IMG/VR virus record: IMGVR_UViG_3300029305_004466
Source: a virus
Taxonomy: Duplodnaviria; Caudoviricetes
Strand: one strand, 5' to 3'
DNA length: 64,000 nt
Below, in pieces: positions 1,107-64,000 of the stretch (position 1 is the stretch's first letter; each line of letters begins with the position of its first letter). The notes beneath the pieces were generated by a model. The model did no database searches. It saw nothing but the letters and a program-made list of their open reading frames with translations, and was not told the origin of the DNA. Both the position numbers and the translations under genes were made by a program.

Positions 1107-1490
1107 TTATTCTGGTTTGATTTCTTCTAATTCTGGAGTTTCAAAAGGTTTTAATGGTTCAGCCGCTTCTTCAGCCTGTTTTTTAGCTAAGATAGTCTTC
1201 ATTTCCATTAAAGCATCTTCGATAATTTTCTTAAGAGTTTCTTCTCTTATAATCATACTTAAGATAGGATGCTGAGCTTTTATCGTACTGATAACTTCAG
1301 CAAACTTAATCTGTCCTGTTTTGCTACCCCATTCTTCTTCAGCTACAGTCACTAAATAGAGTGCTGCTTCGTAAATACCTTTTTTACCTTTTGCCACCAC
1401 ATATACTACCACACAAGCAATAATAACTGCCAAGAGGATAACATAAGGGTTTTCAGCTAAACTTTTTACCATGTCGTTAATAATAGTCAT
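1107..1490 (-). CDS. Holin-like membrane protein
   Basis: One N-terminal TM helix then 'VTVAEEEWGSKTGQIKFAEV', resembling LL-H-type holins. Confidence 0.55.
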   Translation of the reverse strand: MTIINDMVKSLAENPYVILLAVIIACVVVYVVAKGKKGIYEAALYLVTVAEEEWGSKTGQIKFAEVISTIKAQHPILSMIIREETLKKIIEDALMEMKTILAKKQAEEAAEPLKPFETPELEEIKPE

Positions 1491-46800: not shown

Positions 46801-49635
46801 AATAACGTTAGCTAAAACTTGATTAATTGTGCCGTATTTCTTAGATGTAAACATGTCGTATATTAACTGAGCTAAAGCTAATTGTATTCTTTGAGAAGTA
46901 GTAGAATTACCCATTTGAATATTAGCTACAACTCTAGCAATAGAGTCTATTTCTGAATTTGTAATGTAAAGATTATCGGAACCATTGATAGTACTAATCT
47001 CGCAAGAAGATGCGGCAACTTTTGTTTCAGGAATAGTTACTTGTTGTTTTATTGGTGCTACATATTCTTTTAATTTTGGAACCTCTAATACTCTTCTATA
47101 TTTGGAATATTTTGCAGATGGGACTGATTCCATACATACTCCATAGGCTTTGCCTTTGGCATGTATAATTTTGTTATCACCTATATATATTGCAATATGC
47201 CCAAAATCTGTTCCTTTTTCATAATTATAAACATGCAATAAATCACCCGGGCTGGCGTGTGCTATTAATTCATCTATCTTCGTAGGGTCGTTAACTGCAT
47301 GTTTTACTCTAAATTTACCTTTTGTAATTAGTGTACCTATTTCCGAAGTTGTCATAGCGTTTCTTTCTTCAAGAGTTAGTACAGTTAATTCATATAATAA
47401 TTGTGCAACTAATCCAGAGCAATCGTATGACCCTTTAGGAAAATCTTTTGATGTTTGTCCATGTCTATAATCCATGCTATAACCTTTTCCTACAGCATTA
47501 AATGCTTTTGCTATAAATTGCTCGCTGAGAGTTTTTACACCTTCGGTTGTTGTCTGTTCATCATAAGCCATTGATTCTACTTCATTACCAATATCAGCTA
47601 TTGTAGTAGTTATCACTGTTGATTGTGGGTCTTTACGATAATGCAAATACTTTTCTTCAATACGGTCTTCTTCTGTTTCTTTCATCATCTTTACTATTGT
47701 TTCAGGATAAAATACATAAAAGTCTGGGTCAACATAACCTTCGTAGATATTATTCTCTAAAATGTCTGCTACGTTAGTTACAAAGCCATTAACATCTACC
47801 TGAAGGTTTGATATAGTTGTTATTCCACGCAACATATGTTGTGGCGTTCTAGGATACTTATCTATTGGATACTCTTCTAATAGAGAACCGTCTTTATAAT
47901 AATGTGTTTGTCTGAATCGTTTTATCTTTTTAATTACTTCATCTACTTCTTTATAGGTAGGAAGTTTTAAATCTGGATAAAGTTCAGTGCTTCTTCTAAT
48001 TTTGTCTTCAACGATAAGGTCTTGTTTTATCTTTTCCTGTAAACCTTTAGGTGATTGAGTAATGGCATTTTTTTCTGTACCTTTAGTACCATTAATATCA
48101 TTGCTTGTAGCTTCAAATGGGTTTACACCAAATATACCTTCACGCTCTTTTTGGTATATATCAAAAGAAATACAGTTTATTTGGCACACAAACAGGTCAG
48201 GAAAATCTGGCACTGTATGTGTTGTGACATTATCAATAACAACAAATTTAGAACCGAATAATTCAGTAAGTTCGGAATCTATTTTAATAAAGCCTAAACT
48301 AGAGCAATCTCTATTGTTCTTTATTAACATATTATTTTGTATACTACACTGCTCTAAAGCATGAATTACACCTTCATCTGTTGTTTCAAGTGTAATATTA
48401 AACATGGTATCCATGCCGCCCATATATTGAACAGTTGGATGCAAATGTTCTGCCATTTGTATATTCGTAATCATGTTAGAATATCCACACTGAAATGAAG
48501 TAATAATTACATTGTCTTCTTCACTATCTAATTGTACGATAAAATTACTTGGATGTTCTTCAGACGGATTTGTTACATGCCACTTCCCGTTTTCGTCTGT
48601 ATATAAAACTTTTTTATCTTGAACTATATCATAGAAACTAAAATCTAATTTTTTTCCTGTGTATTTGTAATTATATTCATCTTTGCTATTTTTTACATAT
48701 TCCTCTTTCACTTGATAATCTATATCGTAATCAATGTCGTCTTGGAAAACGGCTTGATTTAAGATACTAATCTTAAATTTATTTAATGTTTTATCAACAG
48801 GAATAGACTGTAATTTTCCATATTCATGTGTTTCTGTTAATTGTCTTTGATAATAGAATCTAAATAAATCCCAGTCTATAAAATACTTAAACATTCTTGT
48901 ATGTGATTCAAGGTAAGGATATAAATCCACTTCCTGTAATGTAAGATTGGCAATTAACATATCAGGAAAGCCTTCTACTGTACTACAGATAATGGATTGT
49001 AAAGCTACAGTATGAATGTTATAAGTATTATTAATTGTAAAGTTTTCTATAGGAAGGAAAGGAGTACATTTGAATTGAGCCAGTAATTGTCTTAATCCGT
49101 CAACATAATAATATCCTTCTGGTCCTTCAACTCTATATCCGTTAATTTGGTTATAACTATGAAAAACTAATTCGATATTAATAGTTCTTTTGGAGTAACC
49201 AGCTTTTGTTTTCTGAGTATTTTCTTGTCTTAATGTCACCAATTCTTGACTAGTTGACTCGGACATAATAGATATAGCTTGCGGAGGAATAATAAAAGTA
49301 CAGTCACCTAATGTAAGATTGTACATTGTATTAAACATTCTATGTTCGTAATCTATGTAATTTTCCTTAATGATAGGGTCAACTCGTCTAGTTTTGCTAA
49401 CTTTAACGAATTCATCCATCATAGCGGAAGCAGCCTCTTCGTCAATTTTGAGGAAACCTTCTTCATCAAAATACAAATCATCTATAGCTTTTTGTTGTTC
49501 TTCGGCAGCTTGTTGATTTTTATTTGCCTCTGATTCTTCTATAGAGTCTTTAATTTTATTTCCTATCCAATCTCCTATTAATGCTCCGACATAACCAGCA
49601 GAGTCGTTATAATCATTTGGGTTTGGCGTTGGCAT
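43819..49635 (-). CDS. Baseplate hub / tail-associated lysin with NlpC/P60 peptidase (1938 aa)
   Basis: YDCSGLV...GHIAIYIGDNKIIHA; SleB-like segment; RMHLRMGYGS hub-type motif; hydrophobic C-terminus. Confidence 0.8.
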   Translation of the reverse strand: MPTPNPNDYNDSAGYVGALIGDWIGNKIKDSIEESEANKNQQAAEEQQKAIDDLYFDEEGFLKIDEEAASAMMDEFVKVSKTRRVDPIIKENYIDYEHRMFNTMYNLTLGDCTFIIPPQAISIMSESTSQELVTLRQENTQKTKAGYSKRTINIELVFHSYNQINGYRVEGPEGYYYVDGLRQLLAQFKCTPFLPIENFTINNTYNIHTVALQSIICSTVEGFPDMLIANLTLQEVDLYPYLESHTRMFKYFIDWDLFRFYYQRQLTETHEYGKLQSIPVDKTLNKFKISILNQAVFQDDIDYDIDYQVKEEYVKNSKDEYNYKYTGKKLDFSFYDIVQDKKVLYTDENGKWHVTNPSEEHPSNFIVQLDSEEDNVIITSFQCGYSNMITNIQMAEHLHPTVQYMGGMDTMFNITLETTDEGVIHALEQCSIQNNMLIKNNRDCSSLGFIKIDSELTELFGSKFVVIDNVTTHTVPDFPDLFVCQINCISFDIYQKEREGIFGVNPFEATSNDINGTKGTEKNAITQSPKGLQEKIKQDLIVEDKIRRSTELYPDLKLPTYKEVDEVIKKIKRFRQTHYYKDGSLLEEYPIDKYPRTPQHMLRGITTISNLQVDVNGFVTNVADILENNIYEGYVDPDFYVFYPETIVKMMKETEEDRIEEKYLHYRKDPQSTVITTTIADIGNEVESMAYDEQTTTEGVKTLSEQFIAKAFNAVGKGYSMDYRHGQTSKDFPKGSYDCSGLVAQLLYELTVLTLEERNAMTTSEIGTLITKGKFRVKHAVNDPTKIDELIAHASPGDLLHVYNYEKGTDFGHIAIYIGDNKIIHAKGKAYGVCMESVPSAKYSKYRRVLEVPKLKEYVAPIKQQVTIPETKVAASSCEISTINGSDNLYITNSEIDSIARVVANIQMGNSTTSQRIQLALAQLIYDMFTSKKYGTINQVLANVIFNGASKELLSTNSSAHIMVKDVFCNGKKAYEKQLRFYMGPNSPFSDRTVCDKVYDEAGTIGDFIFWGEKFAKSLDKKYILVDDNNNVNSITEPVTEVIKTTSTGVTELTSDKIKRFGKPVIIKTSEMDEDGGIVSGILEGKGLQNQEERYRNNYNTNTQRLMSSFVNQCEFSGKGRLIKAFPTYLFSIVDEDGNWLNGKKLWANYYMLRSLVDIQVVSNNDSPVNTATITVTNSYGNLDTLPPNSFYYSPTMDNNGNLVTSTDDGYSKFQLLLYNQFGMLPGIGPKLTKTLIEQKNIIYDSMVVRAGCRMHLRMGYGSDPLGLPIVMNGYISDLQLGDIVQFVCVSDGVELVNSITSDSPKDSTNKESSNLCMDILSARQSWLAKVSKNWGEPNKFGIEHFGLYFSEKIEFFGGWSSNLAGVVQGSTIETTYTENGIPITKEVVVLGATIVDGVVNFVTTAGEVIVAGGKKLGDGLIKSWNEVQYDLNKNIYRAGTNWGLIGQEVYRGSLAMYNPAAPTFDGEKNMVFNKYNKTPWDAIQMAVMNAPEFLGMPMYHQFESRLFFGLPWYLAKYRYNMINGEIYEEAKAFAQCHFIDSLTEIIDNQMVTSSRDVYTNNIVMYTLGKTVKASPTIYSDKTVSNSLQSTKIFDSSIVQNWIGPDILWELGGFDVGKQAAIRVGVTQLLWNWQKAYQGDLMLLGDAGIEPDDYMYVNDRYNELTGLCVARTVTHTLSARTGFVTTVVPGMIALNTEAASNANVNLANMTSLCEAFAYRASVKKVIKDNVELLANYLNTFSWSLFLMTSIRNIDTLLLVGTAGKKLYQIFDKSEEIIGGIKAIKWADLGKEFKNLKYAVKSFSGIKKTISKTNSISKIGKSIVKHSISLGKRGFKSLKLLGAKAGGVAGAVGGPIGVAAAAIVGFVVGTIADILLTKIIDFLSYNNMVVLLPMRHKGIPYAPILSGEKLLLTGSSNVSPDTIADSQTVDEDEKTVYEE

Positions 49636-49684: not shown

Positions 49685-52600
49685 TTATACTAATTCTGAA
49701 AATTTTCTTTCAAGCCAGTTATTACTTACTTGACTTCTATCATCTTGAATATTGATATTAGTATCTCCGTTTGTTTGACTGGATAACTGTCTAGCAACAT
49801 TCATTTGGTTTATAATATCTTTAGATTTAGCAGACATTTTAAATTGCGTTCCACTAGTAGGGTCTGTGTATACTACCTTTTTGCCAGTTGAAGCTGGGGC
49901 TCTTAAAGTGTCATTATTGATTGGACCAGATGCTTCTTTTTGTTCAAGTTCTGGCGATAAAGGTGAACTACCTCCAGTTAGCATTTCATTTGCAAGACCG
50001 AGTGCTGCAAGTCCCATTAAGACTTTACCCGGTTTGGTTTTGATAAAATCTTTGGCAAAGTTTTTAGCATCACCTAAGGTCTTATTTATCATGCCGCCTG
50101 CTTTTTTAACAGCTTCTTTCTTACCTTTGGCATTCATGCCTTCTTCGGTAGCTTTAGTGCCTTCTTCCACAATTTTTTCATTTATCTGCTTTGTTAAATT
50201 CATTATATCTTTTTCTCTTGCACCTTGCAAGCCATTGTTATCATTAGGGGAATAATCTTTAAGGTATTCTCTAAGTTTAGATTTAGTTTGTTCAACAGCG
50301 TATTTATCAAAAGCATCAGCGTCATCAGGAGTTATATAATCCATAACTTCTTTTACGTCTTCACTAGATAAATCCGAAAAGCTTCTACCAAACAAACTAT
50401 TACATGTGTTAAAACCAACACGCATATCATCAGAACCATCCCAACCGAAAACTTTATCTATATCACTAGTGGTAGTAAATTTCATACCTCTTTGTAATGA
50501 TTTGATATAAGCTTCATTTTCGCTTCTGTATAATCCAAGAGTTTTTTCGGCATTATTATTTCCGTCTAAGTCTAATCCTGCTTTTCGTAAGTCTATTATT
50601 CTTTCATCGTAGCCATCAAATATAGAACTATCTAAGGCTTTTTTATTTGCTAAGTATTCTCTGTATTCATCGGTATCGCCATTTAATCTTCCCAATCCTA
50701 CAGTATTAGCTACTTGTTTAATTCTTTCACTAAAGATATCAGATGTTGAAGTTTTTTTACCTTTGCTTCTTTCAATAATATCTCTATTGATTTCCGCAAG
50801 CATATTGTTTATATAAGTTCTATCTTTAAATGCTTGTCTGCCAGCTTCACTTTGATACATAGCATTATCTCTGATGAATTCCATTTGATTAATGAATTCT
50901 TCAAAGTCACTATCAGACACCATATTTAAGTATTTATTGATGCTTCTGCTGGTTTGTTTTCCTAAAGTACTAGTGGCATCAGAATAATCATATGCTTCAT
51001 CACCTCTAATGTATTTAGTTGCAAACTTACTAGTTCTTTGTGCGACCACTCTTCCAGATACATCTTTTTTAAATCTAGTCATGTCGGACATACTAGCAAT
51101 ACTCATTGCTTCATAGTCTCCGAATTTTTCTTGTAGTATAGATTGCATTTGAGCATTTGAACTTGCTTTTATTGTATGTTTTCTTCCCCATACAGGAGCT
51201 CCATTTTTGGTAGTACCTGTACTCAAGTTAAAGGTTTCAAAGCTTACCGAATACTCTCCACCTTTTCTTCTTAAATCATTTGTCTGTTTATAGAGTACAA
51301 TATCTCCATCTTCATCACTAATATATATTTGGTCACGTTTTAATTCTTGCAGAGTGTCATTATGGTAATACCCCATATTGAAAGCTAAATCTAAATCCCT
51401 TAATGCATCATCAACTGCTCGTCTTGCTGTAGTAGTTACATAGCCGTCTGCATCGAATTCTGCAAATTTTGCTACCATATCTTCTACAAAACTAACTGCA
51501 CCTTCGGTACTATCTGATGTAAGAAGACTACTTCTTAATTTTAATTTATCCCAGAACTTTCTGAATACTGATAAATTTGCGGCTTTACCGAGCACTTCCA
51601 TATATTCTTCTACTGGAACTTCTCCGCTATATTTTATATGACCAACGGATTCTTGTACTGCTTTTAAACCTTGTTGAGTATGCTTTCCGCCTTTAAATAC
51701 ATCATTCATACCAGATGTAAATAAATCAGCTCTGAATATTTCTTCAGCACTTTTAATATGCTTAACACTAATAAAGCTTTGCTCTGTTTCTGGCATAAAT
51801 CCTGTTTTATTAACATGCATTGCTCTTTTTATATCTTGCAATTCGTACAATAAATCTTTATCACCTTTTTCAAGTGCATAATTTATAGATTCCTCTAAAG
51901 CTCTATTAAATCTGTATACAGTATTACTTACTGTACCGATATTAGGTTTTGTGGCTCTTACTTTGGTAGCTGCGTTAATAACATCTTCATTTTTTAACAT
52001 GTTACCATGTTTTTTCTCCCAAGCATTATATAATTGTTCAACAACTTCATCGTCCATATCTGACACATCGTATCCAATGAATTCGTCAAGACCAATTTCA
52101 GTAAGTAATTCATTTCTTTTGTTTTTTGACAAATACCCATCTACCATAGCAGCTTTATATTGCAATGTTTCCCCGATTGCATCTGCTGTTCTTAAATAAT
52201 TTCCGTCACTTGTAGTACCTCGTTTTTCCATTTTGCTTACAGTGTCTTCTATTAAATCATGCATTTCCTTATTTGACTTAGAGGCGTATACTGTGCCATC
52301 TCTATCTATAAATTCTGTGAACACTTGTTGTTCATAGTTTTTACTAAGAGCACTATAAAATTTCCTATCTCTTTTGTTTACCACAAGACCGTTTTTATCA
52401 AGATAAGCTTTTACAACTAAGTTATCGCCGTCAAAGTCACCAGCTTCTCTGTCAATTAATGTTGGTGTTACTCTTATGTCATCTCTCTTAAGAAATCTAT
52501 TGTATCTTAAGATGACATCATTAACAGTACCTTCGTTATTGGTAGGGTATCTTGCCGACTTTGCAAATGTTCCGACTGTAGCAAAATAATCTTTTGCCAA

Positions 52601-55600
52601 TACGTCAAAACTATCACTAATAGCATCTCTTTCCTTTGCTAAAGCTTCGAACATTCCAGCGATTTGACTTGATTTAATTTTTTGTCCTGTTAAGGTTTCA
52701 AATATGCTAATAAAGCTTTGTTTGGATTTTTTATCTCCAACACCTCTATTAAGTATACTGTTTACTTGATTAAACAATTTTTCACTCTCTAAAGCTTTTC
52801 GATAATATCGTATTTTATTGCTATCAATAATAGCTCTAGCATAATCTTCATCAAAGAAGCCGTGTTCCATCTCTTTGATGAGAGGTCTATAGTTTTCCAT
52901 ATTAAAGAACAAGTCTTTACCTGTTTTTCGGAAATCTATACCGAGCTTTTTGAAGCCCTCTTCACCCATTTCAACTATATCATCATAGTATAATTTTCCG
53001 TTTCTTATGGTAGTATATCTACCATCTAAATCTATATTGTTGCTTACTATATTACCATTTTTATCGTATTCAACAAAACCTGATGCAATTTCACTTAATA
53101 TTTGTTGTCTATAAGTGTCACTGGTTGCCGAAGCCCATTCTTTATAATTACTGCTCATTCCAGAAACTACAGGCATTACAGATGCTTCAGCATGACCATA
53201 TAATGAGTTTTTCATTGATATCTTCAGCGTTCTCTGATATGCAAATGATGTTTTATCTTCTGTATTTAAATCATTTGCAAAAGCTCTATACATTTTCTGT
53301 ATTTTTTCATTAAGGTCTTTTTCGCTTTGTTCAATACCCTTATTCCTGCCGTATGTTTTGAGTTCATTTATAACATCATTAATGATTCTAGGTGTTTTTG
53401 TATACTGAGCTTCGCCTTCAAAAGGAGTAATATCATATAATGGGATAAGAAGTTGTTTTACCTTTTTAGAAACAACCTTTCCATTTTTCTTATCCGAGAA
53501 ATTACTAAAGGAAATACCATCTGGTAATGCAACTCTTAATACTGATATATCGTCAATATTCTTTCCTTGTTGTCTAGCTAAGGCTCTTAATTGGTCACTA
53601 TATTGTGTTCCTTTTCCATCAACTACTTTAAATATGCCAACTTTCATTAATTCATCAGCATCGCTTCCAGCTGGAATTAAATTTATTTGGTCTAATTTTA
53701 AATCAAGTATAATATTTGCGTTTGCTAATTTTTCTGGGGAGCCCATATATTCTGCGGCAGCTATTATACCTTCATTTGTCTTTTTAGCACTTGCAAATCT
53801 TTTACCGCCAACGGTGCTTGCATCAGTTGCCTCATCCCATATTCTTTTGTTAACATATTGTGAAGTAGACATATAGCGTCCATTAACTTCAATAGCATTT
53901 AAGTTTTCGAAGTCACTGAGGTCTGCGTTATATTCATCAATATCTTCTAAGAATTTTGTACCAGCTGATAACTCTACCCTTGGGTCTATTTTCATTTCGC
54001 CACCCATGGATTCGTTATTTACGCCTCGTGTAACACCTATTCTTGCAATACCGCTTCTTTCTGATTCTGCAATATCGTTTGTTATTCTAGACCATAATGC
54101 TTGGAAAGGACCTTCTTTTTCTGCTCTTTTAGCGATTTCACTAACAACACTCATTATTTGAGTTCTTGCTCCACCCTTTCCAAGAGCAGATTCATCGTAA
54201 AAGAATCTGCCTTCATCATAGATAATTTTCATACCATTAGAGTCGGCATTATGGAACATTCTTGTTATTTGTCCAGCTAATTCTTTTCCTTTAGCTTTGC
54301 CACCTTTTACTTTATATAAATCTTCTATTTCATTTTGAACAGCATTGAAGATTCTATTCATGTAATTTCCATAAGTTATACTACCAGTACCATGCTTTAT
54401 TAAGGACATGTCTGTACCAATAGCTACGCCTTTACCAAGTATTTCATCGTATACAGCATCCGAAATTACTCTGAATACGTCTTTTGCTTCTGATTGGCTG
54501 ATGCCTGTTTGATTAAGCAGATATCTAAATCTATCAAAAGAAGTAGAAGTATCGAATTCAGACATTGCCATTGTCATCTTTTCGTTATACATGAATAACT
54601 TAACAGATTCTGTACCCTGTCTATCTTCTATTAAGTGAGCTTTGCCAGTAGTAAAGAAGTTATCAAGTTCATTTATATCAATAGTACCAGTTGGACCACT
54701 ATAAGTGATATTTCTTTCATCACCTAATCTGAAAGTCATACCTGATTCAATATGCCCTGAGGCGAATAAATCTGCGTATCTTCTTCTTAAAACAGCAAGG
54801 TCTTCTTTGCCTACGGCATTAATTTTTGCAGTAACTAAGTTAGGACTATTAAATAATGAAAGGTCAAGTAAAGTATCTCTACCAAATGCTCTTGATTCAT
54901 ATGTATTAGCCTTCATCTTAGCAACGTTAAATACTTCTCGAATTAATTGTTTACTAACAGATTCGTCATGTATCTGGAATTTTCCAGTCTTAAGTGTATT
55001 CTGATATAATTCTCTAAAGATATTATCAAAATTATTTTCACTTTCAATATCTTGAATTTTTGCAAGTAATTCTGTAGGTGATATTTGTTTAACATTTAAA
55101 GTAACTCCTGTTTCTAAGTCACCATAATTGATACCATCATATACCTTATAATCACTTAACGCTGCTCTACGTTGTTGTTCTTGAATTGGCATAATATCAT
55201 AACCAAATCTCATTTGCAGTTTCTTTGCTGTTTCTTCACTTATTTCTCTTTTAGCGTCAGCAACAATATAATGTTGAGAACCGCCTACCTGATTACCAGT
55301 AGGACGAATATTTGTATCAGTAGAAGCGAATTGGTTAAACATAAAAACATCATTTAATCCTATACGCTTCTTATCATATACTGCTTTTTCTTTTAATAAC
55401 TGAGATATATTTTCTCTATTGTTTGCGATAAAGTTTATTGATTGCATAGTACGCTTTGGTAATTCGTATCTTTTAGCAACGTCTTGAAGATAATCAAGAA
55501 TTGTAAAATTAGCCTTATTAGCAAAACTACCTTGTTCAGCACTCATTGGAGTATTCATTAAATGCTTATAGAAAAACTCATCAAATGCTATACTTACACT

Positions 55601-58600
55601 CTGTCCTTCTCGTGCTTTTTTAAGCATGGAATCTAATGCTACTACTGTGTCATTTGTTTGTATACCAGAAAGACTTGCCAATGCTCTAACGCCTTCAAGT
55701 CTGTCATTTTTAGCTATAGTGCCAGCAACATTTAAGTTTTTCTGAGCATTAAGATAATCAGCTTTGGCAGCTTCAAGCGTTAATATTTCAAGTGGCTGTA
55801 TAGCAACTTGTGATGACAGGTAAGTATCAGACACTGATGGTGCTAAAACTTTTTTCCATCCATCTGCTGTCGGTAATGCCTGATAACCAACTGGACCCGG
55901 AGCATCTGTTAATATTCCATTAAGTGCAGTTGAGTATAAACGTGTCATACTAGCATAAGTTTCTTTTGCATTAGAAGGGTCTGTTGTTACATCTATTATG
56001 CCCTGTCTTATACGTCTCCAGACTGAACTTATATCGCTTGCTGAATCTGTAAGATATATATCTAAATTTTCAAGACCAGTATCATCTTCATAGTAGTTTC
56101 CCAGACTGAACTGAGAAACTTTCTGGAAGCCTCTATCACCTACACTTATTGTGTTCATGGAATGATTAGCTTTTTGACCATTAATATCTGTATAGGTCAT
56201 TGAATCTGTTGCGTTATAAGTATCACCATTGGTTATTATTTCATCTCTATGTATTGCAGGTAATTTAAATACAGCAGAGTAATTATTCTCCTGTATTAAA
56301 TCTATTTTTTGTTGGAAAGAAAGTTCATCTGATGCCATGGTTTCCATGGTTTTCGCAAGACCAGTTTCATTACCAGTATTAAGATTTACCAAGATAAAAG
56401 CATCTTCACCCTTTTTACCAGAATAAGCAAACTGAGTAATAAATCTGGTTTTACCATCTGTTTTTATTTGAGTAAGACCAAATGGTTCTCCTTTTTTGGT
56501 TGTACTCTGGAAGAATGTTCTTTCCATTGATTCAACAGCAGCGTCTGTATAGCTAAGGTCATTTTTTAATATTCTGGAAATTTCATTTTTATCCATTGTA
56601 ATTCTCATGTTTTGTGCATTAGAAACAATACTTTGGATACCATCTTCAAAAGACCTAGCACCACGAAGTCTATCAGAAAACATTTCCCCAGCAGTGTAAT
56701 CTACAAAATCTCCATCATCCATTTGCACTGTATATTTTGAGGTTCTAGCTTTACGCAAAGAAAGACCGCCAGTTAACTGTTCATTAGTCTTTCTTTGCAT
56801 GAAATTATACAAATGTCCTGTTCCCTCTAAACTAGTTATTCCACTTTCAACATAATCTCCATATGTCATCATCTTTTTGATAGGTCTTACATATGAATCT
56901 TGAATGTGAGTAACAAATGATTCAACAAGCTGGTATTTTTTTATTTCATCAACAGTGGCTACAGAAAACTTACTTATTGCATTAGCCATTGCTTCCTGTT
57001 GGTCTTCTGGCAATGCATCTCTCATTTCATTAAGCATGTTTCTAAATACTTTGCTTTTAACACCAGCAGCCTGATTAAGGTCAGCCATTGAGAATGCACT
57101 AATAGAAGTATCAATAACGCCTCTACTATATAAATCATTTATGGCTGAGAACATAGCTTCAACGCCATCTACTTCATTACTTCTTTTTGTTTGTCTTAAT
57201 ATAGCTTGTATTGCTTGTCCTCTATGCTCAAAATTGATATGAGTTGCACCATTGCCAAAGTCCATTTCTATATTGAACATATCTCTTTTTGATGCATTAG
57301 CGTAATCCATAAAAATATTAGAAGCATAATCTTCATAATTAGTATTACCTAAAGCACCAAAAACACTATCTCTTATTCCACCTGCAATCAAAGTCTTTTG
57401 ATGGTTGCTAAGGTCTTTACCTTCTACTTGTTCTTCGATATATTCTAAAATTTCAGCTTCATCTTGTATTTTACCAAATACATTTCTGAAATCTCTTAAC
57501 ATACTTGGAGCGATATTTTTGCCTTCTTCGATTCCTAAATCTTTTTCAAGAATAGGAATAATTGTATCATCATACTGTCCTTCGGCAATATCTCTAATAA
57601 CATTTTCATCTATACTTATTCCTTCAGAAGTAAATGCTGATACGGTATCTTTATATGCTCTATAATATTGATTAAGTCTATCATATCCACCAATATAGGC
57701 TTGTTTATCTGTATCATATTCAAGGTTCTGAGGACTAAATAAACTTTCATAATTTCTTCTGGCTTTGTCGGCATCTACTATAGCTTCATTAATATCTAAG
57801 TATTCAAGCCTTTTGCCCATATCACTAGCTTTATCGGCAAGAAAAGTATTGCTTATCATTTGTTCTGCTTCTACAGAACTACCAAATGTTTTAATGAATC
57901 TATCTTGACTCCCTCTTGCAGCGGATAAAAATTCGACAGCAATACGTCCATCTTCATAACTTCTTACATCGTTGATTTTATAATATCTACCACGCTGTAT
58001 ACCGTAATTATGAAACTTAGTGTGCTTACCTCTTGAAGAAAAATAATCTGAACCATTTTTATCAACGGCAATGGATTCCAATGCATAGAAAACATTCTGG
58101 TCAAGCATTGCTTTGATTCTGCCCGGGTTTGTTAATTGATTAGCTTCGCCAACAGCTTTTTCCCAAGCCATCATTTCTGGTAAACTAACACCTTTATAGA
58201 AATCTTCAAGTGCTACCAATGCATTAGTAACTTCTGTATCACTGGCAGCATTATGTGCATTAATACTAATACCAAATGCTTGAGCAAGTCCTTCAAGAGA
58301 ACCTCTTCGGCTTATACCTGTATGTGTTAAGCCACTGTTAATTGCAATATTTTTAGCTAAGCTAATTTCACTATTTCTTGTTGCATATTTGATACCAGAA
58401 AGTAAATCTAATACATTATTTTTGCCTAATGCATTAGCATTTTCATTTAATACTTTAGCATTAATATTATCTTTATCTACCTTGAAAGCGGCTCTATATA
58501 CAGGAATATCAAATGCGTTACTATTAAAGCCTAAAATAAAAGTATTTTCTGTTCTGGATGCATCTGCAAAATATCCTGAAATTCTTCCTCTTAAAGTGTC

Positions 58601-59461
58601 ACCTTTTTTAGTTGTTACAGCAGTATCTAATGTTTGAACCTTAAAACCTTTAGAGACAAACTCTTTTTGTTTTCTTTTATATGCGTCTAAATCTATAAAT
58701 TCAAAACCTGCATCACCTAATATAGTTCCATAATCTTCTGCTGATATTCCGCCAAGTATTGCAAGATTAGTAAGACCATCAGAAACTGCTTGCCGACTAA
58801 AGCCATTGGAATCGGCAAGCTGTTTAACAGTTACAAGTTTATTTTTGGAGATTCCTGAAATGCTAGACATTTGAAATACATCATCAAAAGACCCTGCGTA
58901 TCTTGAAAGTCTTTCTAAGTCACTTTCAAGCCCAGTTCTATTTTTATAATCAAGGTTAAGGGCGTTAATTCCGCCCCCCTTGAAAACAGGATATATTTGT
59001 TTAGCAAGTCTTTCAAATTGTCCTTTATTAATACCGAGAGCAATAGAATGAGAGCCAACAACTTTCGGACCGCCTTTTCTCAAAAGGGTTTCTGTAAAGC
59101 CTATTTCTGTGATATTACCGTCATACGCATGTGCATTACGCATTCCTATTGTTTCAAAGTCAAGAGCGAGAAGTCTTGTTTCAAGTCCTTCGCTACGAGT
59201 TTTTAAAACAGATTCATGTAATGCTCTCCATTGTTTTTGCTGAACTGAAAAATCGTAGTCATAATCGCCGTATACACTTTTATCGACAAAGACACTTTCA
59301 GCTATACTTTCAGCACTGTCGAATACCGATAAATTGCCCAGCATATGTTCACTATAATCAGTTTCACCTGTATAAGGATGAACATATGGAGTGTCCATTT
59401 GGGTATAAGCCAATTTAGTATTACTCCAGTTTTTTCTTTGTATGTCTGCGAAATAAGGCAT
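49685..59461 (-). CDS. Giant protein: N-terminal DEDDh exonuclease plus single-chain DPBB RNA polymerase, probable virion RNAP (3258 aa)
   Basis: LDFETIG / GFNSNAFDIP / HNAASD; ARYPT...IRVTPTLIDREAGDFDGDN (DFDGD at 52424-52438). Confidence 0.8.
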   Translation of the reverse strand: MPYFADIQRKNWSNTKLAYTQMDTPYVHPYTGETDYSEHMLGNLSVFDSAESIAESVFVDKSVYGDYDYDFSVQQKQWRALHESVLKTRSEGLETRLLALDFETIGMRNAHAYDGNITEIGFTETLLRKGGPKVVGSHSIALGINKGQFERLAKQIYPVFKGGGINALNLDYKNRTGLESDLERLSRYAGSFDDVFQMSSISGISKNKLVTVKQLADSNGFSRQAVSDGLTNLAILGGISAEDYGTILGDAGFEFIDLDAYKRKQKEFVSKGFKVQTLDTAVTTKKGDTLRGRISGYFADASRTENTFILGFNSNAFDIPVYRAAFKVDKDNINAKVLNENANALGKNNVLDLLSGIKYATRNSEISLAKNIAINSGLTHTGISRRGSLEGLAQAFGISINAHNAASDTEVTNALVALEDFYKGVSLPEMMAWEKAVGEANQLTNPGRIKAMLDQNVFYALESIAVDKNGSDYFSSRGKHTKFHNYGIQRGRYYKINDVRSYEDGRIAVEFLSAARGSQDRFIKTFGSSVEAEQMISNTFLADKASDMGKRLEYLDINEAIVDADKARRNYESLFSPQNLEYDTDKQAYIGGYDRLNQYYRAYKDTVSAFTSEGISIDENVIRDIAEGQYDDTIIPILEKDLGIEEGKNIAPSMLRDFRNVFGKIQDEAEILEYIEEQVEGKDLSNHQKTLIAGGIRDSVFGALGNTNYEDYASNIFMDYANASKRDMFNIEMDFGNGATHINFEHRGQAIQAILRQTKRSNEVDGVEAMFSAINDLYSRGVIDTSISAFSMADLNQAAGVKSKVFRNMLNEMRDALPEDQQEAMANAISKFSVATVDEIKKYQLVESFVTHIQDSYVRPIKKMMTYGDYVESGITSLEGTGHLYNFMQRKTNEQLTGGLSLRKARTSKYTVQMDDGDFVDYTAGEMFSDRLRGARSFEDGIQSIVSNAQNMRITMDKNEISRILKNDLSYTDAAVESMERTFFQSTTKKGEPFGLTQIKTDGKTRFITQFAYSGKKGEDAFILVNLNTGNETGLAKTMETMASDELSFQQKIDLIQENNYSAVFKLPAIHRDEIITNGDTYNATDSMTYTDINGQKANHSMNTISVGDRGFQKVSQFSLGNYYEDDTGLENLDIYLTDSASDISSVWRRIRQGIIDVTTDPSNAKETYASMTRLYSTALNGILTDAPGPVGYQALPTADGWKKVLAPSVSDTYLSSQVAIQPLEILTLEAAKADYLNAQKNLNVAGTIAKNDRLEGVRALASLSGIQTNDTVVALDSMLKKAREGQSVSIAFDEFFYKHLMNTPMSAEQGSFANKANFTILDYLQDVAKRYELPKRTMQSINFIANNRENISQLLKEKAVYDKKRIGLNDVFMFNQFASTDTNIRPTGNQVGGSQHYIVADAKREISEETAKKLQMRFGYDIMPIQEQQRRAALSDYKVYDGINYGDLETGVTLNVKQISPTELLAKIQDIESENNFDNIFRELYQNTLKTGKFQIHDESVSKQLIREVFNVAKMKANTYESRAFGRDTLLDLSLFNSPNLVTAKINAVGKEDLAVLRRRYADLFASGHIESGMTFRLGDERNITYSGPTGTIDINELDNFFTTGKAHLIEDRQGTESVKLFMYNEKMTMAMSEFDTSTSFDRFRYLLNQTGISQSEAKDVFRVISDAVYDEILGKGVAIGTDMSLIKHGTGSITYGNYMNRIFNAVQNEIEDLYKVKGGKAKGKELAGQITRMFHNADSNGMKIIYDEGRFFYDESALGKGGARTQIMSVVSEIAKRAEKEGPFQALWSRITNDIAESERSGIARIGVTRGVNNESMGGEMKIDPRVELSAGTKFLEDIDEYNADLSDFENLNAIEVNGRYMSTSQYVNKRIWDEATDASTVGGKRFASAKKTNEGIIAAAEYMGSPEKLANANIILDLKLDQINLIPAGSDADELMKVGIFKVVDGKGTQYSDQLRALARQQGKNIDDISVLRVALPDGISFSNFSDKKNGKVVSKKVKQLLIPLYDITPFEGEAQYTKTPRIINDVINELKTYGRNKGIEQSEKDLNEKIQKMYRAFANDLNTEDKTSFAYQRTLKISMKNSLYGHAEASVMPVVSGMSSNYKEWASATSDTYRQQILSEIASGFVEYDKNGNIVSNNIDLDGRYTTIRNGKLYYDDIVEMGEEGFKKLGIDFRKTGKDLFFNMENYRPLIKEMEHGFFDEDYARAIIDSNKIRYYRKALESEKLFNQVNSILNRGVGDKKSKQSFISIFETLTGQKIKSSQIAGMFEALAKERDAISDSFDVLAKDYFATVGTFAKSARYPTNNEGTVNDVILRYNRFLKRDDIRVTPTLIDREAGDFDGDNLVVKAYLDKNGLVVNKRDRKFYSALSKNYEQQVFTEFIDRDGTVYASKSNKEMHDLIEDTVSKMEKRGTTSDGNYLRTADAIGETLQYKAAMVDGYLSKNKRNELLTEIGLDEFIGYDVSDMDDEVVEQLYNAWEKKHGNMLKNEDVINAATKVRATKPNIGTVSNTVYRFNRALEESINYALEKGDKDLLYELQDIKRAMHVNKTGFMPETEQSFISVKHIKSAEEIFRADLFTSGMNDVFKGGKHTQQGLKAVQESVGHIKYSGEVPVEEYMEVLGKAANLSVFRKFWDKLKLRSSLLTSDSTEGAVSFVEDMVAKFAEFDADGYVTTTARRAVDDALRDLDLAFNMGYYHNDTLQELKRDQIYISDEDGDIVLYKQTNDLRRKGGEYSVSFETFNLSTGTTKNGAPVWGRKHTIKASSNAQMQSILQEKFGDYEAMSIASMSDMTRFKKDVSGRVVAQRTSKFATKYIRGDEAYDYSDATSTLGKQTSRSINKYLNMVSDSDFEEFINQMEFIRDNAMYQSEAGRQAFKDRTYINNMLAEINRDIIERSKGKKTSTSDIFSERIKQVANTVGLGRLNGDTDEYREYLANKKALDSSIFDGYDERIIDLRKAGLDLDGNNNAEKTLGLYRSENEAYIKSLQRGMKFTTTSDIDKVFGWDGSDDMRVGFNTCNSLFGRSFSDLSSEDVKEVMDYITPDDADAFDKYAVEQTKSKLREYLKDYSPNDNNGLQGAREKDIMNLTKQINEKIVEEGTKATEEGMNAKGKKEAVKKAGGMINKTLGDAKNFAKDFIKTKPGKVLMGLAALGLANEMLTGGSSPLSPELEQKEASGPINNDTLRAPASTGKKVVYTDPTSGTQFKMSAKSKDIINQMNVARQLSSQTNGDTNINIQDDRSQVSNNWLERKFSELV

Positions 59462-59474
59462 TACAGTTTCCCCC

Positions 59475-62400
59475 TTAATAATTCAAATTGTAAATAGCGG
59501 ATTCTATTTCATCTCTGCTATCTTGATATATATTCAATGTATTTTTATTACCTCTGGCATTATCATATGCCATTACAGTTACATCGTGATACCCCGTCCT
59601 ACCAAGGATAGCTTGTAATTTTAATTGTACCACACCCCTAGAGTTTTGTGAATGGATTTTAGGAACTGGAATATTAACTTGATTAGCTGCTTCTATCTGG
59701 TCATCCCATAAATCAAATTCGCCCATATCCAGTTTGTTGTTGTGTACTAATTTTACTTTTACGTTTTCTAAATCAACATCTTCATCCCAACCTATCCAGT
59801 TTGAATCTGGTAAGCCGTGAGTCTGGAAGTACTCTTGAAGTGTAGGTTTTTCATCTACTTTCATTCCCCATGCCTGTTGTAAACCTCTCTTAAGATAGTC
59901 AGGGGCAATTCTAAGAATTTCGTCTTTCTCTTCTTCAGGTGCATCGACAAAGTATTTAAAGTATTGCCTTTCTTTCTTAGGAAGAGCCTTCATAAGGTTA
60001 TTTAATGGGTCTTCCGGTTCATATCCATACATGGTTTGGTCTGCTTGTTGTTTATAACTTATAGCTTTTATTACATTTTCAGGCAAACGCTGTATTTCAC
60101 GGTCTGATTGTATTCTCTTAAGTTCTTGATTTACTGTTCTTATAATGCTTTTTGAATCAGCATTTATATCAAGACCTTCAGGAGCTCCGTATTTAAAGTT
60201 AAATTGTTTTCTATGTTTGTAATCTAATTTAACCGTTTTCTTGAATGCTTCTAATTCTCGGGTTCTATTTTTATTATATATACCTTGTATTTGTTTTTCA
60301 TTAACCATACTATCAATATTTATATGGTCTTCTTTAAGGGCTTTCTTTTTGTACTTTTCATATAATCCCATATTCTTTACATATTTTAATGTATCAAAAT
60401 ACTCGTTTAATTCAGCTTGTTTTTCTCTTCTTTCTGGTATCCAATCACTTTCTCTGTCTTTCTGTGTGTAAGCATAAGTACCACCGAATAAACCAATAGC
60501 ACCGCCTACGAAACCAGATGTTAATCTACCGTATTTAGAATTACCAAATAACGAGCCTAAGAAACCACCTAATACTGTTGCAGTAACTATTCCTTCTGGA
60601 CCTGTGTTACCATGTCTGATAACTTTATCTATCATCTCAGGACCCAGATAATCTTTAATAGGGTTATTCCAAGATTGGAAGTCTTTGCCGTATACTTCTC
60701 TATCTCTATATTGTTCATATGGAGATTTTACTTGGAAGAACTTATTACCTACGAAAGGAATTTGCCCTACAGCGTGTGTGATTCTTTCCATAGCTGAGCC
60801 AACTGCTATTTCATTTTTAGTATATTTTGCATGGATAGCAGCTGGACCATCATCTTCTTTTTCTTTTGCTAAACCTTTATTAAGCATTGTTTGGTTAACA
60901 TTTCTACCATCAGAATAAACAACTGCTTGAATAGATTTAGTTGAATCAGAACCGTATTTATTAGCATCATCTGCATCATATGCAATGGTAATTGATTTAC
61001 CTCGTCTAATATGTTTCCTGAGTTCTTTAGCGGCTGCGTCATTCATTGTAGTTCTCTTATTATACATTTCGCTATTAGACTCGCTAACACGTATTCCTGC
61101 TAATTTAACAGCATGGTCAGTGCCATATCTATTAACTAAAATAGTATTGTTGTCTATTACTTTCTTAACTCTTACTCTTTCGGATTGCAGGTTACTTGTT
61201 TTGAACTTATATGGATATACTCTTAAAGGTTCTTTTTGCTTTTGTAGTCTTTCGTTTATCTGAGAGATTTCAGCACGTTCTTCTGGTGTGAGCCCCGGGT
61301 CGTTAGCAAGTCTTGCTTTAATAGCTTGGAACTCATCTGAATAAGGGGCTACGTCTGCCAATATTCTGTATCTGTCGATATTAGAATATAATTCACCTCT
61401 ACCTATTGTGCCGTTTTGAACCCCTTGGTATATTTCATTTCTTGCCTGATTTAAAGTATTCAGGTTTTGTTCTAATAAGTTTTTATCATATTTAAAACCT
61501 GTTGTGTAAGTTTGGTCTGGATTATCTCTGTTAATATAATAGATATAACCGTTTGACCGTTTATTGCCAGTTGCCCATAAATAGTAATTAACCTGTGACT
61601 GATGTTCGAAATCTGCGTGTCCTTGTTGCATTATTCTATAAAACTTATCTTCGCCAACAGACTTAATATCAACAATTGCTTTACCAGTTCTTGATGAAGG
61701 GTCATGAATCATAGCATCATAAAAACCAAGAATGTTATTGATATTGTCTTTAAATTGAACTTCAGTGTTTATAGCAAGCCCTGCTTCCATCCAAGCTTTT
61801 TCTACTTGCTCATGAATTCTGTTACCTTTTTCGGTAACTTCCATTCCGAATGAGTCTATACTATCTTGATTCAATAAATGTTTTTGAATATCTTCTTTGG
61901 CTTTTCCGATATAGCTAGAACCTATTCCAAGGTCAAACATTTGTCTGGAATTTATACCGTATAATCTCTCATAGCCTTCGCCCGGAAGTCGTTCTTCACC
62001 ATTATCTATTTTTGAATATGGGTCGCCATGCTTAAAATCAGTGAAATAATTACGTCCCGGCATCCATGATGGCATGGTATTTCTTATAGGATTTATATAT
62101 TCTGTATTCGTGTTTCGTTTTTGTACGAAACGTCTGAAGATTTCTGATGCATCTCCGCCAAAACCACCAAGGTTTTCATCCCAGAAAGATTTGTTAAATG
62201 AGTATGCATAATTGGAATCTTCTATTACTCTTGCATCTTTGTTAGCTTGCCCAGTAATAAATGCTTGTGTTTCAAAACCTCTCATACCGAAGAAATCTGA
62301 TACGGTATTAAACTCTTCTCCGATATTATACATGAAGGAGTTATTTATTGGCTCACTATTGTAATCTGCTAACTGAGGTGCAAATCTGTTAGGGTCATTT

Positions 62401-64000
62401 ACATCAACTCGTGTATCAGCCTCGTGGAAGCGTTTAATACTATATTCTCTTAATCGTTGATTAGCTGTCCAAAGATTAAGAGATGCTGGTATATCTACAA
62501 CAGACATACCACCTGAAGGAGTTGTGTATACTTCCAAATCAGATATGTTAGTCATAAATGTAGAGAATGTATTATCTGTTTCACTTGGCAAGATATTGCC
62601 TACCATAAGTAATTGTTGTGGACCAGAATAATTTGTCACTGCTCGTGCTTGTCTAGCACTCAGAGCTCTTGCATATCCATCTTTTGTTTGTGATGCGGCA
62701 TAAGTATTATTAACGTCTTGTAATATCAAAGAATTTATAAAAGCATTATTTGTAGCTGTTTGTCTTTGATATGTGCTATTCTGATTTACATAATCTATAA
62801 TAGGTACAGTTTCATCGTCTTTTTCTACAGGAGTACCGCCTTGCCAATATTCTTTATGCATTTTCATTTGAGGAGTAAATGCCGAGAATAAAGGACCTAC
62901 GACAGGAACATTATTAGCACCATTGGATGTTAATAAATACGGTCTGTCATAGTAGTGCTTTCTATCATAATGATTTCTATCCAGTATAAAATGATTAATA
63001 GGAGCTAATGGATTAACAAGGTTAGGATACCAAGTATTAGAATAATATTCTTGTCTTGAACCCCATTTAGAATCGCTGAAATCTACATCAGCTTCTATTC
63101 GTCTATATAGATTAGGTCTCCAGTACATGATTTTGCCGCCAGTATAAGGAGTATTACCAAGTCCCCAGTATCTTGATTTACGTATTGGGTCAGAGCCATT
63201 TTCTATATAGTCTTTTCTTTCTTCATAAGATTGAGTTAAACCTAAGCTATAGATTCCCGGAAGTTCGTTTATCTGGTCAAACCCCGGAGTGAATTCTTCT
63301 ATTTTATCCATGAGTTTAGTAATACCAAGTATATCTTTTACTCTATGCATTCCTAAATCAATTGGCTTAACTACATTACTCATTGTAAATTTAGTAATAT
63401 TATTTCTATTACCAGTACCGTCTTCATCTGGATTAAATAGATTAAAGATAGGTTCTGATAAAGCGTTTAGCATTTCTGGAACTTGAGTTACTGCATATAT
63501 AGGAAGCACTCTTTTTAATGCAAAATTAGAAAGGTATTGTGGTAGATTTCCTTTTGAATCCGTACTGAAACCTAATTGTGGAGAGATTGAATTAAGTCTA
63601 CCAAGTACATTATCAATCAAACCATAAGCACCTAAAGTTGTTTCTGTAGTATATTCTGCGAATGTGCCATCTTTTCTTCTGCCTCCTAGAAAAGCTTCTT
63701 TTAAATACTCTCTGGTGTAATCTATTTTGCCTGTTATTCCAGCTTGCTGAGAAATACCTCCAAGAGTTCTTCCTTTTTTAGTAGCAATAAATTTTCTTGA
63801 GTATTCCGTTTCTCCGTTTCTGGTTATATTAACTGGACCACCGCCAAATATATTGGCTGGAGTTTTATCATCTGCGGCTTCGTATATATTAAACTTTTTA
63901 GTTATATCATATATTTTATCAGTCATCCAACCATCTATATCAAGGATGCCAAGATGCCTTTTATGTCCTTCAACCCTTTCTCCATCTGGATTGAATTCTA
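59475..64000 (-). CDS. Giant virion-associated protein, 5'-truncated by the window, with RecB/Cas4-like nuclease and SNase-like domains
   Basis: Frame stays open past ATG 63926 to the window edge; GNRIHEQVE/GFYDA/IVDIKS/QVNYY; VIDNNT/KLAGI/GRNVNQTMLNKGLA. Confidence 0.8.
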   Translation of the reverse strand, partial: EFNPDGERVEGHKRHLGILDIDGWMTDKIYDITKKFNIYEAADDKTPANIFGGGPVNITRNGETEYSRKFIATKKGRTLGGISQQAGITGKIDYTREYLKEAFLGGRRKDGTFAEYTTETTLGAYGLIDNVLGRLNSISPQLGFSTDSKGNLPQYLSNFALKRVLPIYAVTQVPEMLNALSEPIFNLFNPDEDGTGNRNNITKFTMSNVVKPIDLGMHRVKDILGITKLMDKIEEFTPGFDQINELPGIYSLGLTQSYEERKDYIENGSDPIRKSRYWGLGNTPYTGGKIMYWRPNLYRRIEADVDFSDSKWGSRQEYYSNTWYPNLVNPLAPINHFILDRNHYDRKHYYDRPYLLTSNGANNVPVVGPLFSAFTPQMKMHKEYWQGGTPVEKDDETVPIIDYVNQNSTYQRQTATNNAFINSLILQDVNNTYAASQTKDGYARALSARQARAVTNYSGPQQLLMVGNILPSETDNTFSTFMTNISDLEVYTTPSGGMSVVDIPASLNLWTANQRLREYSIKRFHEADTRVDVNDPNRFAPQLADYNSEPINNSFMYNIGEEFNTVSDFFGMRGFETQAFITGQANKDARVIEDSNYAYSFNKSFWDENLGGFGGDASEIFRRFVQKRNTNTEYINPIRNTMPSWMPGRNYFTDFKHGDPYSKIDNGEERLPGEGYERLYGINSRQMFDLGIGSSYIGKAKEDIQKHLLNQDSIDSFGMEVTEKGNRIHEQVEKAWMEAGLAINTEVQFKDNINNILGFYDAMIHDPSSRTGKAIVDIKSVGEDKFYRIMQQGHADFEHQSQVNYYLWATGNKRSNGYIYYINRDNPDQTYTTGFKYDKNLLEQNLNTLNQARNEIYQGVQNGTIGRGELYSNIDRYRILADVAPYSDEFQAIKARLANDPGLTPEERAEISQINERLQKQKEPLRVYPYKFKTSNLQSERVRVKKVIDNNTILVNRYGTDHAVKLAGIRVSESNSEMYNKRTTMNDAAAKELRKHIRRGKSITIAYDADDANKYGSDSTKSIQAVVYSDGRNVNQTMLNKGLAKEKEDDGPAAIHAKYTKNEIAVGSAMERITHAVGQIPFVGNKFFQVKSPYEQYRDREVYGKDFQSWNNPIKDYLGPEMIDKVIRHGNTGPEGIVTATVLGGFLGSLFGNSKYGRLTSGFVGGAIGLFGGTYAYTQKDRESDWIPERREKQAELNEYFDTLKYVKNMGLYEKYKKKALKEDHINIDSMVNEKQIQGIYNKNRTRELEAFKKTVKLDYKHRKQFNFKYGAPEGLDINADSKSIIRTVNQELKRIQSDREIQRLPENVIKAISYKQQADQTMYGYEPEDPLNNLMKALPKKERQYFKYFVDAPEEEKDEILRIAPDYLKRGLQQAWGMKVDEKPTLQEYFQTHGLPDSNWIGWDEDVDLENVKVKLVHNNKLDMGEFDLWDDQIEAANQVNIPVPKIHSQNSRGVVQLKLQAILGRTGYHDVTVMAYDNARGNKNTLNIYQDSRDEIESAIYNLNY

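Follow-up and report, generated by a model that had tools for sequence, protein, structure and literature searches.

A predicted DEDDh exonuclease domain shares one giant chain with an RNA-polymerase-like core in the tape-measure slot of a jumbo myovirus

We analyzed a 64,000-nucleotide stretch of viral DNA (IMG/VR virus record IMGVR_UViG_3300029305_004466), the whole of which is referred to here as the window, following up an original prediction that one giant protein encoded in it joins a 3'-5' exonuclease to a putative RNA polymerase (RNAP). The protein, P0001, has 3258 aa and is encoded on the minus strand by the uninterrupted open reading frame (ORF) 49685-59461, confirming that a single unbroken ORF holds both the exonuclease motifs and the sequence DFDGD. 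Structure prediction gives its N-terminal domain the DnaQ/RNase T (DEDDh) fold, and the same chain carries a core that is likely, but not proven, to be a two-barrel RNAP. By gene position, P0001 is the homolog of gp146 of Bacillus phage 0305phi8-36 and occupies the tape-measure slot of a 0305phi8-36-like jumbo myovirus of about 210 kb. The features of P0001 are listed below.

49685..59461 (-): P0001 ORF, joining in a single chain the exonuclease, an unassigned stretch, the two-barrel RNAP-like core and the gp146-like C-terminus
59470..59476 (-): Shine-Dalgarno sequence AAGGGGG ahead of the ATG at 59461 (sequence reading)
58157..59194 (-): predicted DEDDh (DnaQ-like) exonuclease domain, about aa 90-435 (AlphaFold2 model, VIA-align, ESM Atlas)
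59144..59170 (-): Exo I, LALDFETIG, aa 98-106 with D101 and E103 (conserved; hhalign to E. coli epsilon)
58562..59029 (-): family-specific insertion separating Exo I from Exo II, about aa 145-300 (AlphaFold2 secondary structure; invariant columns)
58502..58531 (-): Exo II, GFNSNAFDIP, aa 311-320 with D318 (conserved; compare epsilon HNAAFDIGF)
58238..58255 (-): Exo III of DEDDh type, HNAASD, aa 403-408 with H403 and D408 (conserved; compare epsilon HGALLD)
51212..54784 (-): two-barrel RNAP-like region, about aa 1560-2750 (motifs, AlphaFold2 model, Foldseek, VIA-align)
52424..52438 (-): putative metal-binding loop DFDGD, aa 2342-2346 (D2342-D2346), conserved in all 15 homologs
49688..50068 (-): C-terminal 127 aa, homologous to gp146 (tblastn E 6e-4; BLASTP E 2e-9)

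The exonuclease domain

The AlphaFold2 model of residues 70-445, built on a 13-sequence alignment, is confident, with a predicted local distance difference test score (pLDDT) of 86.7 and a predicted template modeling score (pTM) of 0.87. We compared this model exhaustively with 48,161 PDB representatives using VIA-align, and DEDD-fold domains filled all of the best 50 matches. These include the S. aureus DinG exonuclease (Z 12.5, 21% identity) and Pol III epsilon (Z 11.7, root-mean-square deviation 2.8, 168/174 residues, 21% identity), together with CAF1 (Z 11.0), 3'hExo and ExoI (both Z 10.8), Cap18 (Z 10.2) and RNase T (Z 9.7). A PolC-type polymerase, TREX1 and Cas2-DEDDh are also among these 50. 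Identity in the VIA-align alignments is 19-23% for DNA exonucleases (Cas2-DEDDh 23%, PolC-exo 20%, ExoI 20%) and 6-16% for RNases. Foldseek returned ExoI and RNase T at probability 1.0, and PF00929 (RNase_T) clusters account for eight of the ten nearest ESM Atlas rows, with TM-scores of 0.62-0.68 by target; of the other two rows, one is a viral cluster without a name and one carries the name epsilon. The language-model atlas gave weak leads (0.90-0.91), some of them to viral DnaQ-like clusters. The DnaQ/RNase T fold, first proposed from motifs, is thus borne out by the model and by a set of best structural matches made up of DEDD domains only.

Searches with sequence profiles gave a different picture. 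PF00929 was not matched in Pfam at E-values up to 1 by P0001 or six homologs, and aa 1-480 had no tblastn match in GenBank phages. A profile search for RNase_T/DnaQ, suggested with the original prediction as a check, yielded no detection in Pfam, NCBIfam or PDB profiles. One homolog gave a weak hint in the form of PF03104 (E 0.034). Hidden Markov models (HMMs) of sequence fail here; the fold assignment rests on structure prediction.

Read from the sequence, the motifs of P0001 look like textbook DEDDh Exo I, II and III. They follow the order Exo I (D-x-E), Exo II (D) and Exo III (H-x4-D), and all three were located, complete, where they had been predicted (D101/E103, D318 and H403/D408). Their counterparts in E. 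coli epsilon are VLDTETTGM (D12/E14), HNAAFDIGF (D103) and HGALLD (H162/D167), and a profile-to-sequence comparison with hhalign aligned Exo I of P0001 with epsilon D12/E14 (E 0.014). On the question of whether the catalytic residues are conserved, all five are invariant in 11 aligned full-length homologs, whose exonuclease domains range from 27% to 85% in pairwise identity, and 15 of 15 relatives possess the motifs. Invariant columns make up 8% of the exonuclease domain, and the probability that five of five catalytic residues fall in them by chance is about 4e-6. T104, N313 and F317, which flank the catalytic residues, are likewise invariant among relatives of this domain down to 27% identity.

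The long insertion that had been noted between Exo I and Exo II is real, since E103 and D318 are 215 residues apart, compared with 89 for E14 and D103 of E. coli epsilon; P0001 therefore has about 125 additional residues here. In the AlphaFold2 model the insertion is built of helices and a beta-hairpin. It contains the nearly invariant sequence ERLSRY, in which R184, S186 and Y188 are invariant in the 11 homologs. Pfam matches of the helix-turn-helix type at aa 207-234 are weak (MarR_2, E 0.044), and the insertion may serve as an extra part for binding nucleic acids.

A domain that escapes every sequence HMM tried and holds a large, lineage-specific insertion, itself marked by an invariant motif, could also be a pseudo-enzyme, that is, a structural or nucleic-acid-binding relic that aids packing, anchoring or ejection. 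However, pseudo-enzymes normally lose their catalytic residues, while in this family the five catalytic residues and the three flanking ones remain invariant at 27% identity in a domain with so few invariant columns. We consider the relic very unlikely, and are highly confident that the DEDDh domain is real and probably active.

The RNA-polymerase-like core

The second conserved part of P0001 begins at about aa 1560, some 1100 residues beyond the end of the exonuclease domain, and its DFDGD loop lies about 1900 residues beyond it. The original wording, an exonuclease fused to the N-terminus of the RNAP, therefore holds as far as the shared chain is concerned but not for adjacency, and it overstates proximity because more than 1000 residues intervene. 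In all homologs, an R-x-P-T motif precedes D(F/H)D(G/A)D by 38 residues. This arrangement mirrors RAPT...NADFDGD, the signature of the RNAP beta' subunit. The D(F/H)D(G/A)D metal loop is found near residue 2170-2460 in all 15 full-length relatives. Further upstream, where a putative second, beta-like barrel should lie (about aa 1600-1830), the motifs K..NEK and E..G..D.R (ESMGG..D.R) are invariant at about aa 1630-1830.

Structural comparison of the core model (aa 1800-2750) agrees with the motifs. The best 50 Foldseek matches are all RNAP largest subunits or QDE-1, the top one being AR9 beta' (E 6.4e-4). [quoted passage not shown] The family profile also aligned with the catalytic loop of phiKZ gp55, with an E-value of only 0.11. 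The DFDGD region is thus predicted to fold like RNAP beta', and the putative polymerase placed downstream of the exonuclease is found to be beta'-like by motifs, Foldseek and VIA-align. We think it probable that the exonuclease sits on the same chain as a genuine two-barrel RNAP.

The metal loop itself varies within the family. Histidine replaces phenylalanine at its second position in 10 of the 15 members (DHDGD or DHDAD), and alanine occupies the fourth position in four (DHDAD or DFDAD). DHDGD, DHDAD and DFDAD are unusual variants of the NADFDGD signature.

A different assignment of the core would make it a PolD-like DNA polymerase with the epsilon-like domain as its proofreader, the pair repairing or filling in the entering genome. 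Two-barrel PolD does make DNA with an exonuclease partner (PMC4996933, PMC10721889), and the exonuclease of P0001 most resembles replicative proofreaders (epsilon, PolC-exo). The core, however, matches RNAP beta'/Rpb1, QDE-1 and phage RNAPs, and PolD is not among the matches listed. The exonuclease of PolD is Mre11-like and not DEDDh, and both the gene position and the P23-45 precedent described below point to a virion RNAP. A PolD-like enzyme is extremely improbable.

Conservation of the fusion

We collected the family through two billion-scale protein searches: of 1.84 billion proteins, nine representatives matched at E <= 0.001, and word-indexed searches added more members. In each of the 15 full-length relatives, which are 3023-3464 aa long, Exo I and Exo III are found near the N-terminus and D(F/H)D(G/A)D further along, so that both motif sets, whose joint conservation had been in question, are retained throughout. 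The possibility that the fusion is an assembly artefact, raised with the original prediction, is excluded because ENA, JGI and Logan samples yielded 21 independent contigs that encode the identical 3258-aa protein, and 13 of these contigs are at least 200 kb long. P0001 starts 13 nt past the stop of the upstream gene, and its ATG is preceded at 6-7 nt by the Shine-Dalgarno sequence, which reads as a strong one. A pattern scan of IMG/VR found no relatives. The family is small and invisible to standard HMMs, and it is therefore without annotation. The one short match inspected, P0013 (421 aa), was considered as a stand-alone exonuclease and rejected, since a 3-kb contig ends within its gene.

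A search of full-text literature turned up no account of a tape-measure, virion-RNAP or two-barrel RNAP polypeptide that contains a DEDD exonuclease. This agrees with the original statement that no such exonuclease was known in characterized DPBB RNAPs.

Gene neighborhood and the tape-measure slot

The two genes that flank P0001 are the following.

59475..64000 (-): upstream giant gene, positional counterpart of the virion protein gp145, cut by the window end; PD-(D/E)XK and SNase-like domains
43819..49635 (-): downstream 1938-aa hub/endolysin (NlpC/P60), gp147 homolog (phrog_20474 E 7.7e-250; synteny)

Other virion proteins encoded in the window have homologs in the Bacillus myovirus 0305phi8-36 (219 kb). 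The gene order, comprising the nuclease-bearing giant, P0001, the NlpC/P60 hub and baseplate genes, is that of gp145-gp146-gp147 in this phage, and chaperone-slot genes precede the gp145-like gene, again as in 0305phi8-36. The same order is found around a homolog whose exonuclease domain is 32% identical to that of P0001. The hub fixes the tape-measure slot. The homology to gp146 covers the last 127 residues of P0001, corresponds to the gp146 C-terminus and includes the most hydrophobic segment of P0001 (about aa 3139-3165). When aa 1500-3258 were compared by tblastn with 50,697 phage records, only 0305phi8-36 matched. The record of gp146 annotates it as a 'hypothetical tape measure protein' whose presence in the virion was established by mass spectrometry, and its assignment as tape measure rested mainly on a tail-length correlation (Hardies et al. 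2007, PMC2147016). As a positional homolog of gp146, P0001 therefore resembles the tape-measure-fused virion RNAP of P23-45.

In gp146 (L001:7834-15447, P0014), inspection by eye shows possible DEDDh-like motifs in the middle of the protein and in the expected order, namely DIETTG (aa 1223), GQNVADAD (aa 1441) and HLARAD (aa 1685). The putative Exo I-Exo II spacing is about 220 aa, similar to that in P0001. Searches for an exonuclease domain in gp146 by hhalign against the family profile, Pfam, PHROG and PDB phmmer were negative, which leaves the motifs seen by eye. No relatives of gp146 were found in the phage collection.

The upstream giant has 1996 aa on full contigs and is represented in the window by a 1483-aa ORF. 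Within this ORF, aa 691-822 match a Cas4/RecB-like PD-(D/E)XK domain (phrog_1706, E 4e-12) and aa 940-1024 an SNase-like domain (PF00565, 22.6 bits against a cutoff of 21). These domains make it a second nuclease-bearing protein in the tail-internal gene block.

Its presence suggests another use of the P0001 exonuclease, as an injected weapon that acts with the PD-(D/E)XK and SNase-like domains against host, competitor or defense nucleic acids at entry, following the logic of 'polyvalent proteins'. Three nuclease-type domains lie in two adjacent giant tail-module proteins, and on this reading the tail-internal proteins would deliver an injected nuclease set. Polyvalent injected proteins with nucleic-acid-targeting domains have been described (PMC5512222), and one of the structural matches, Cap18, is a DEDDh enzyme associated with CBASS (cyclic-oligonucleotide-based antiphage signaling system). 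The copies delivered per infection, however, would be too few for bulk degradation of host DNA by an epsilon-like enzyme, and known anti-defense families were not matched in the searches made, which did not include PADLOC. We consider a weapon unlikely.

Two small genes (177 and 234 aa; L006:2790-4037 and L005:3-677) occupy the position of the split tail-chaperone pair gp143/gp144 of 0305phi8-36, and the 234-aa gene overlaps the start of the 1996-aa giant. Elsewhere, positions 1487-2626 (-) of the window encode a 379-aa protein with a match to sigma-factor families (phrog_3512, E 9e-6) in its C-terminal part (about aa 307-371); this protein is possibly a phage sigma factor beside phage-encoded polymerases. 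0305phi8-36 encodes a YonO-like protein, orf99.

Proposed role of P0001

We propose that P0001 is a virion-delivered pilot protein of a jumbo myovirus related to 0305phi8-36, encoded in the tape-measure slot. Its chain would comprise an enlarged DEDDh 3'-5' exonuclease of the epsilon/DinG/PolC-exo type, about 1100 further residues, a single-chain two-barrel RNAP and the gp146-like C-terminus. By analogy with P23-45, P0001 would exit the tail when the phage infects and, at the site of entry, would transcribe the first phage genes. The exonuclease would be catalytically active and would work locally, in cis, on a few substrates at this site. The likeliest substrate would be the 3' DNA ends of the genome as it enters; the leading end, for example, could be trimmed or resected to give a single-stranded template for the polymerase. 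Whether this account is right as a whole seems to us evenly balanced, while the part of it that makes P0001 an ejected, tail-borne protein is likely.

Tape-measure proteins are present in few copies per virion. As only a few would enter the cell, a local task in cis is more plausible than bulk degradation of host nucleic acids, which is less likely. In lambda gpH and T5 pb2, the N-terminus of the tape-measure protein faces the head, where the DNA end lies, and by analogy the N-terminus of P0001 would do so too. This orientation, together with the higher identity to DNA exonucleases, favors action on DNA 3' ends, although the choice of DNA rather than RNA as the substrate is still an even call. 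The N4 virion RNAP needs a single-stranded template, and the crAss-like virion RNAP prefers one in vitro; the exonuclease could create a template of this preferred kind. Preparation of the genome end or of the template specifically is put forward tentatively, as a possible but less probable task.

The exonuclease might instead serve the RNA product of the polymerase, by proofreading or by 3' trimming of pre-early transcripts. None of the 15 relatives separates the two activities, which share one chain in every case; the DEDDh enzymes include many RNases, of which CAF1, 3'hExo and RNase T give good scores with the model; and polymerase-linked proofreading by a DEDDh enzyme is established for coronavirus nsp14. 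It is equally established, however, that two-barrel RNAPs already cleave backtracked RNA in their own active site via the secondary channel. The two modules are also more than 1000 residues apart, identity to DNA exonucleases is higher, and proofreading would have little obvious value for a handful of pre-early transcripts, so that we regard a role in RNA editing or trimming as rather improbable. The wider notion of the DEDDh domain as a dedicated in-cis partner of the two-barrel polymerase, whether for template preparation or for product editing, we regard as doubtful. The roles suggested with the original prediction (transcript proofreading or 3' trimming, processing of the genome ends and degradation of defense nucleic acids) are thus all conjectural.

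Several observations weigh against the proposal of a tail-delivered polymerase with an exonuclease acting on DNA ends. For the exonuclease, Foldseek E-values are only about 3e-3, a weakness due to the insertion, and the domain has no significant match in NCBIfam, in PDB by phmmer, or in PDB with a six-sequence profile. The best of the HMM matches is a weak hint to phrog_192, 'DNA polymerase exonuclease subunit' (E 0.008). The RNases CAF1, 3'hExo and RNase T lie within 1.5-3 Z units of the DNA enzymes, and for this reason a preference for DNA over RNA is tentative. For the core, the AlphaFold2 model of aa 1800-2750 reaches a middling pLDDT of 71, and what supports the beta-like barrel is a set of conserved motifs. 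The virion location is borrowed from gp146, with which P0001 has only its last 127 residues in common and which contains no D-x-D-x-D sequence. Folded globular domains of this size should not fit the lumen of a tail tube, which makes the tape-measure reading itself uncertain. Finally, 3'-5' resection of a duplex end sends an RNAP toward that end, an arrangement that suits only outward-facing genes.

The DEDDh fold, the two-barrel virion RNAP and the tape-measure fusion are each known, and the carrier protein is of a known kind, because the tape-measure-fused virion RNAP of P23-45 has already been published. The combination, the lineage (jumbo myoviruses) and the domain order are new. Descriptions of tape-measure-fused virion RNAPs have until now been confined to P23-45-like Thermus siphoviruses; the P0001 family would extend them to jumbo myoviruses of the 0305phi8-36 lineage and would add a conserved, apparently active (as predicted) 3'-5' exonuclease module. 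P0001 would then join the rare two-barrel polymerases that are coupled to an exonuclease. Should the exonuclease work with the polymerase, it would show a possible route by which transcription could start while the duplex genome is still moving into the cell. If it is in fact a dedicated partner in cis, P0001 would be the first two-barrel RNAP with its own exonuclease module, delivered ready-made through the phage tail. Residues 60-460 provide a precise construct for experimental testing.

Comparison with known systems

Enzymes of the PF00929 type (epsilon, the PolC and DinG exonucleases, ExoI and RNase T) share with P0001 the predicted fold and the five catalytic residues in the same order. 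The P0001 domain differs from them in falling below detection by the Pfam HMM and in having about 26 extra residues between Exo II and Exo III, in addition to the roughly 125 between Exo I and Exo II. It also sits in a 3258-aa virion-module protein, whereas DnaQ-type enzymes are found in a replicase, in a helicase or as stand-alone proteins.

Coupling of a polymerase to a 3'-5' exonuclease, as proposed for P0001, is known from coronavirus nsp14 ExoN-nsp12 and from PolD DP1-DP2, in both of which the exonuclease acts as a proofreader, a function that is only putative in P0001. The PolD polymerase is a two-barrel enzyme like the P0001 core, while coronavirus nsp12 is a right-hand RNA-dependent RNA polymerase. 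PolD DP1 is Mre11-like and a separate subunit, whereas the exonuclease of P0001 is of DEDDh type and on the same chain.

The crAss-like phi14:2 gp66 and the N4 virion RNAP resemble P0001 in being very large and, as proposed for P0001, virion-delivered, with the polymerase flanked by more than 1000 residues of unknown function. phi14:2 gp66 is a two-barrel enzyme with the sequence DFDID, and the N4 enzyme is T7-like and not two-barrel. Both belong to podoviruses, where they are stored in the head or muzzle and not encoded in a tape-measure slot, and an exonuclease has not been reported in either.

Like P0001, gp146 of 0305phi8-36 lies between gp145-like and gp147-like giants, its C-terminal 127 residues are homologous, and the two phages are both jumbo myoviruses with other homologous virion proteins. 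gp146 has 2537 aa, lacks the D-x-D-x-D sequence and shows no detectable similarity to P0001 outside the C-terminus.

The closest functional precedent is gp96 of P23-45, a tape-measure-fused two-barrel virion RNAP that has been demonstrated (Chaban et al., Nat Commun 2024, PMC10770324). Its proposed task is the transcription, at the entry pore, of pre-early genes, among them that of a second, non-virion RNAP (PMC10770324). gp96 and P0001 are both giant proteins of the tape-measure slot with a single-chain two-barrel RNAP (in P0001, a likely one) and a DFDGD loop. P23-45 is a siphovirus, whereas the phage of P0001 is a jumbo myovirus, and the two proteins have no detectable sequence similarity and a modest structural match (the Z of 6.8 given above). 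The RNAP is N-terminal in gp96 (aa 327-1124) but lies at about aa 1560-2750 in P0001. No exonuclease or nuclease is mentioned for gp96 in PMC10770324, whereas P0001 carries the predicted DEDDh domain ahead of its polymerase-like core.

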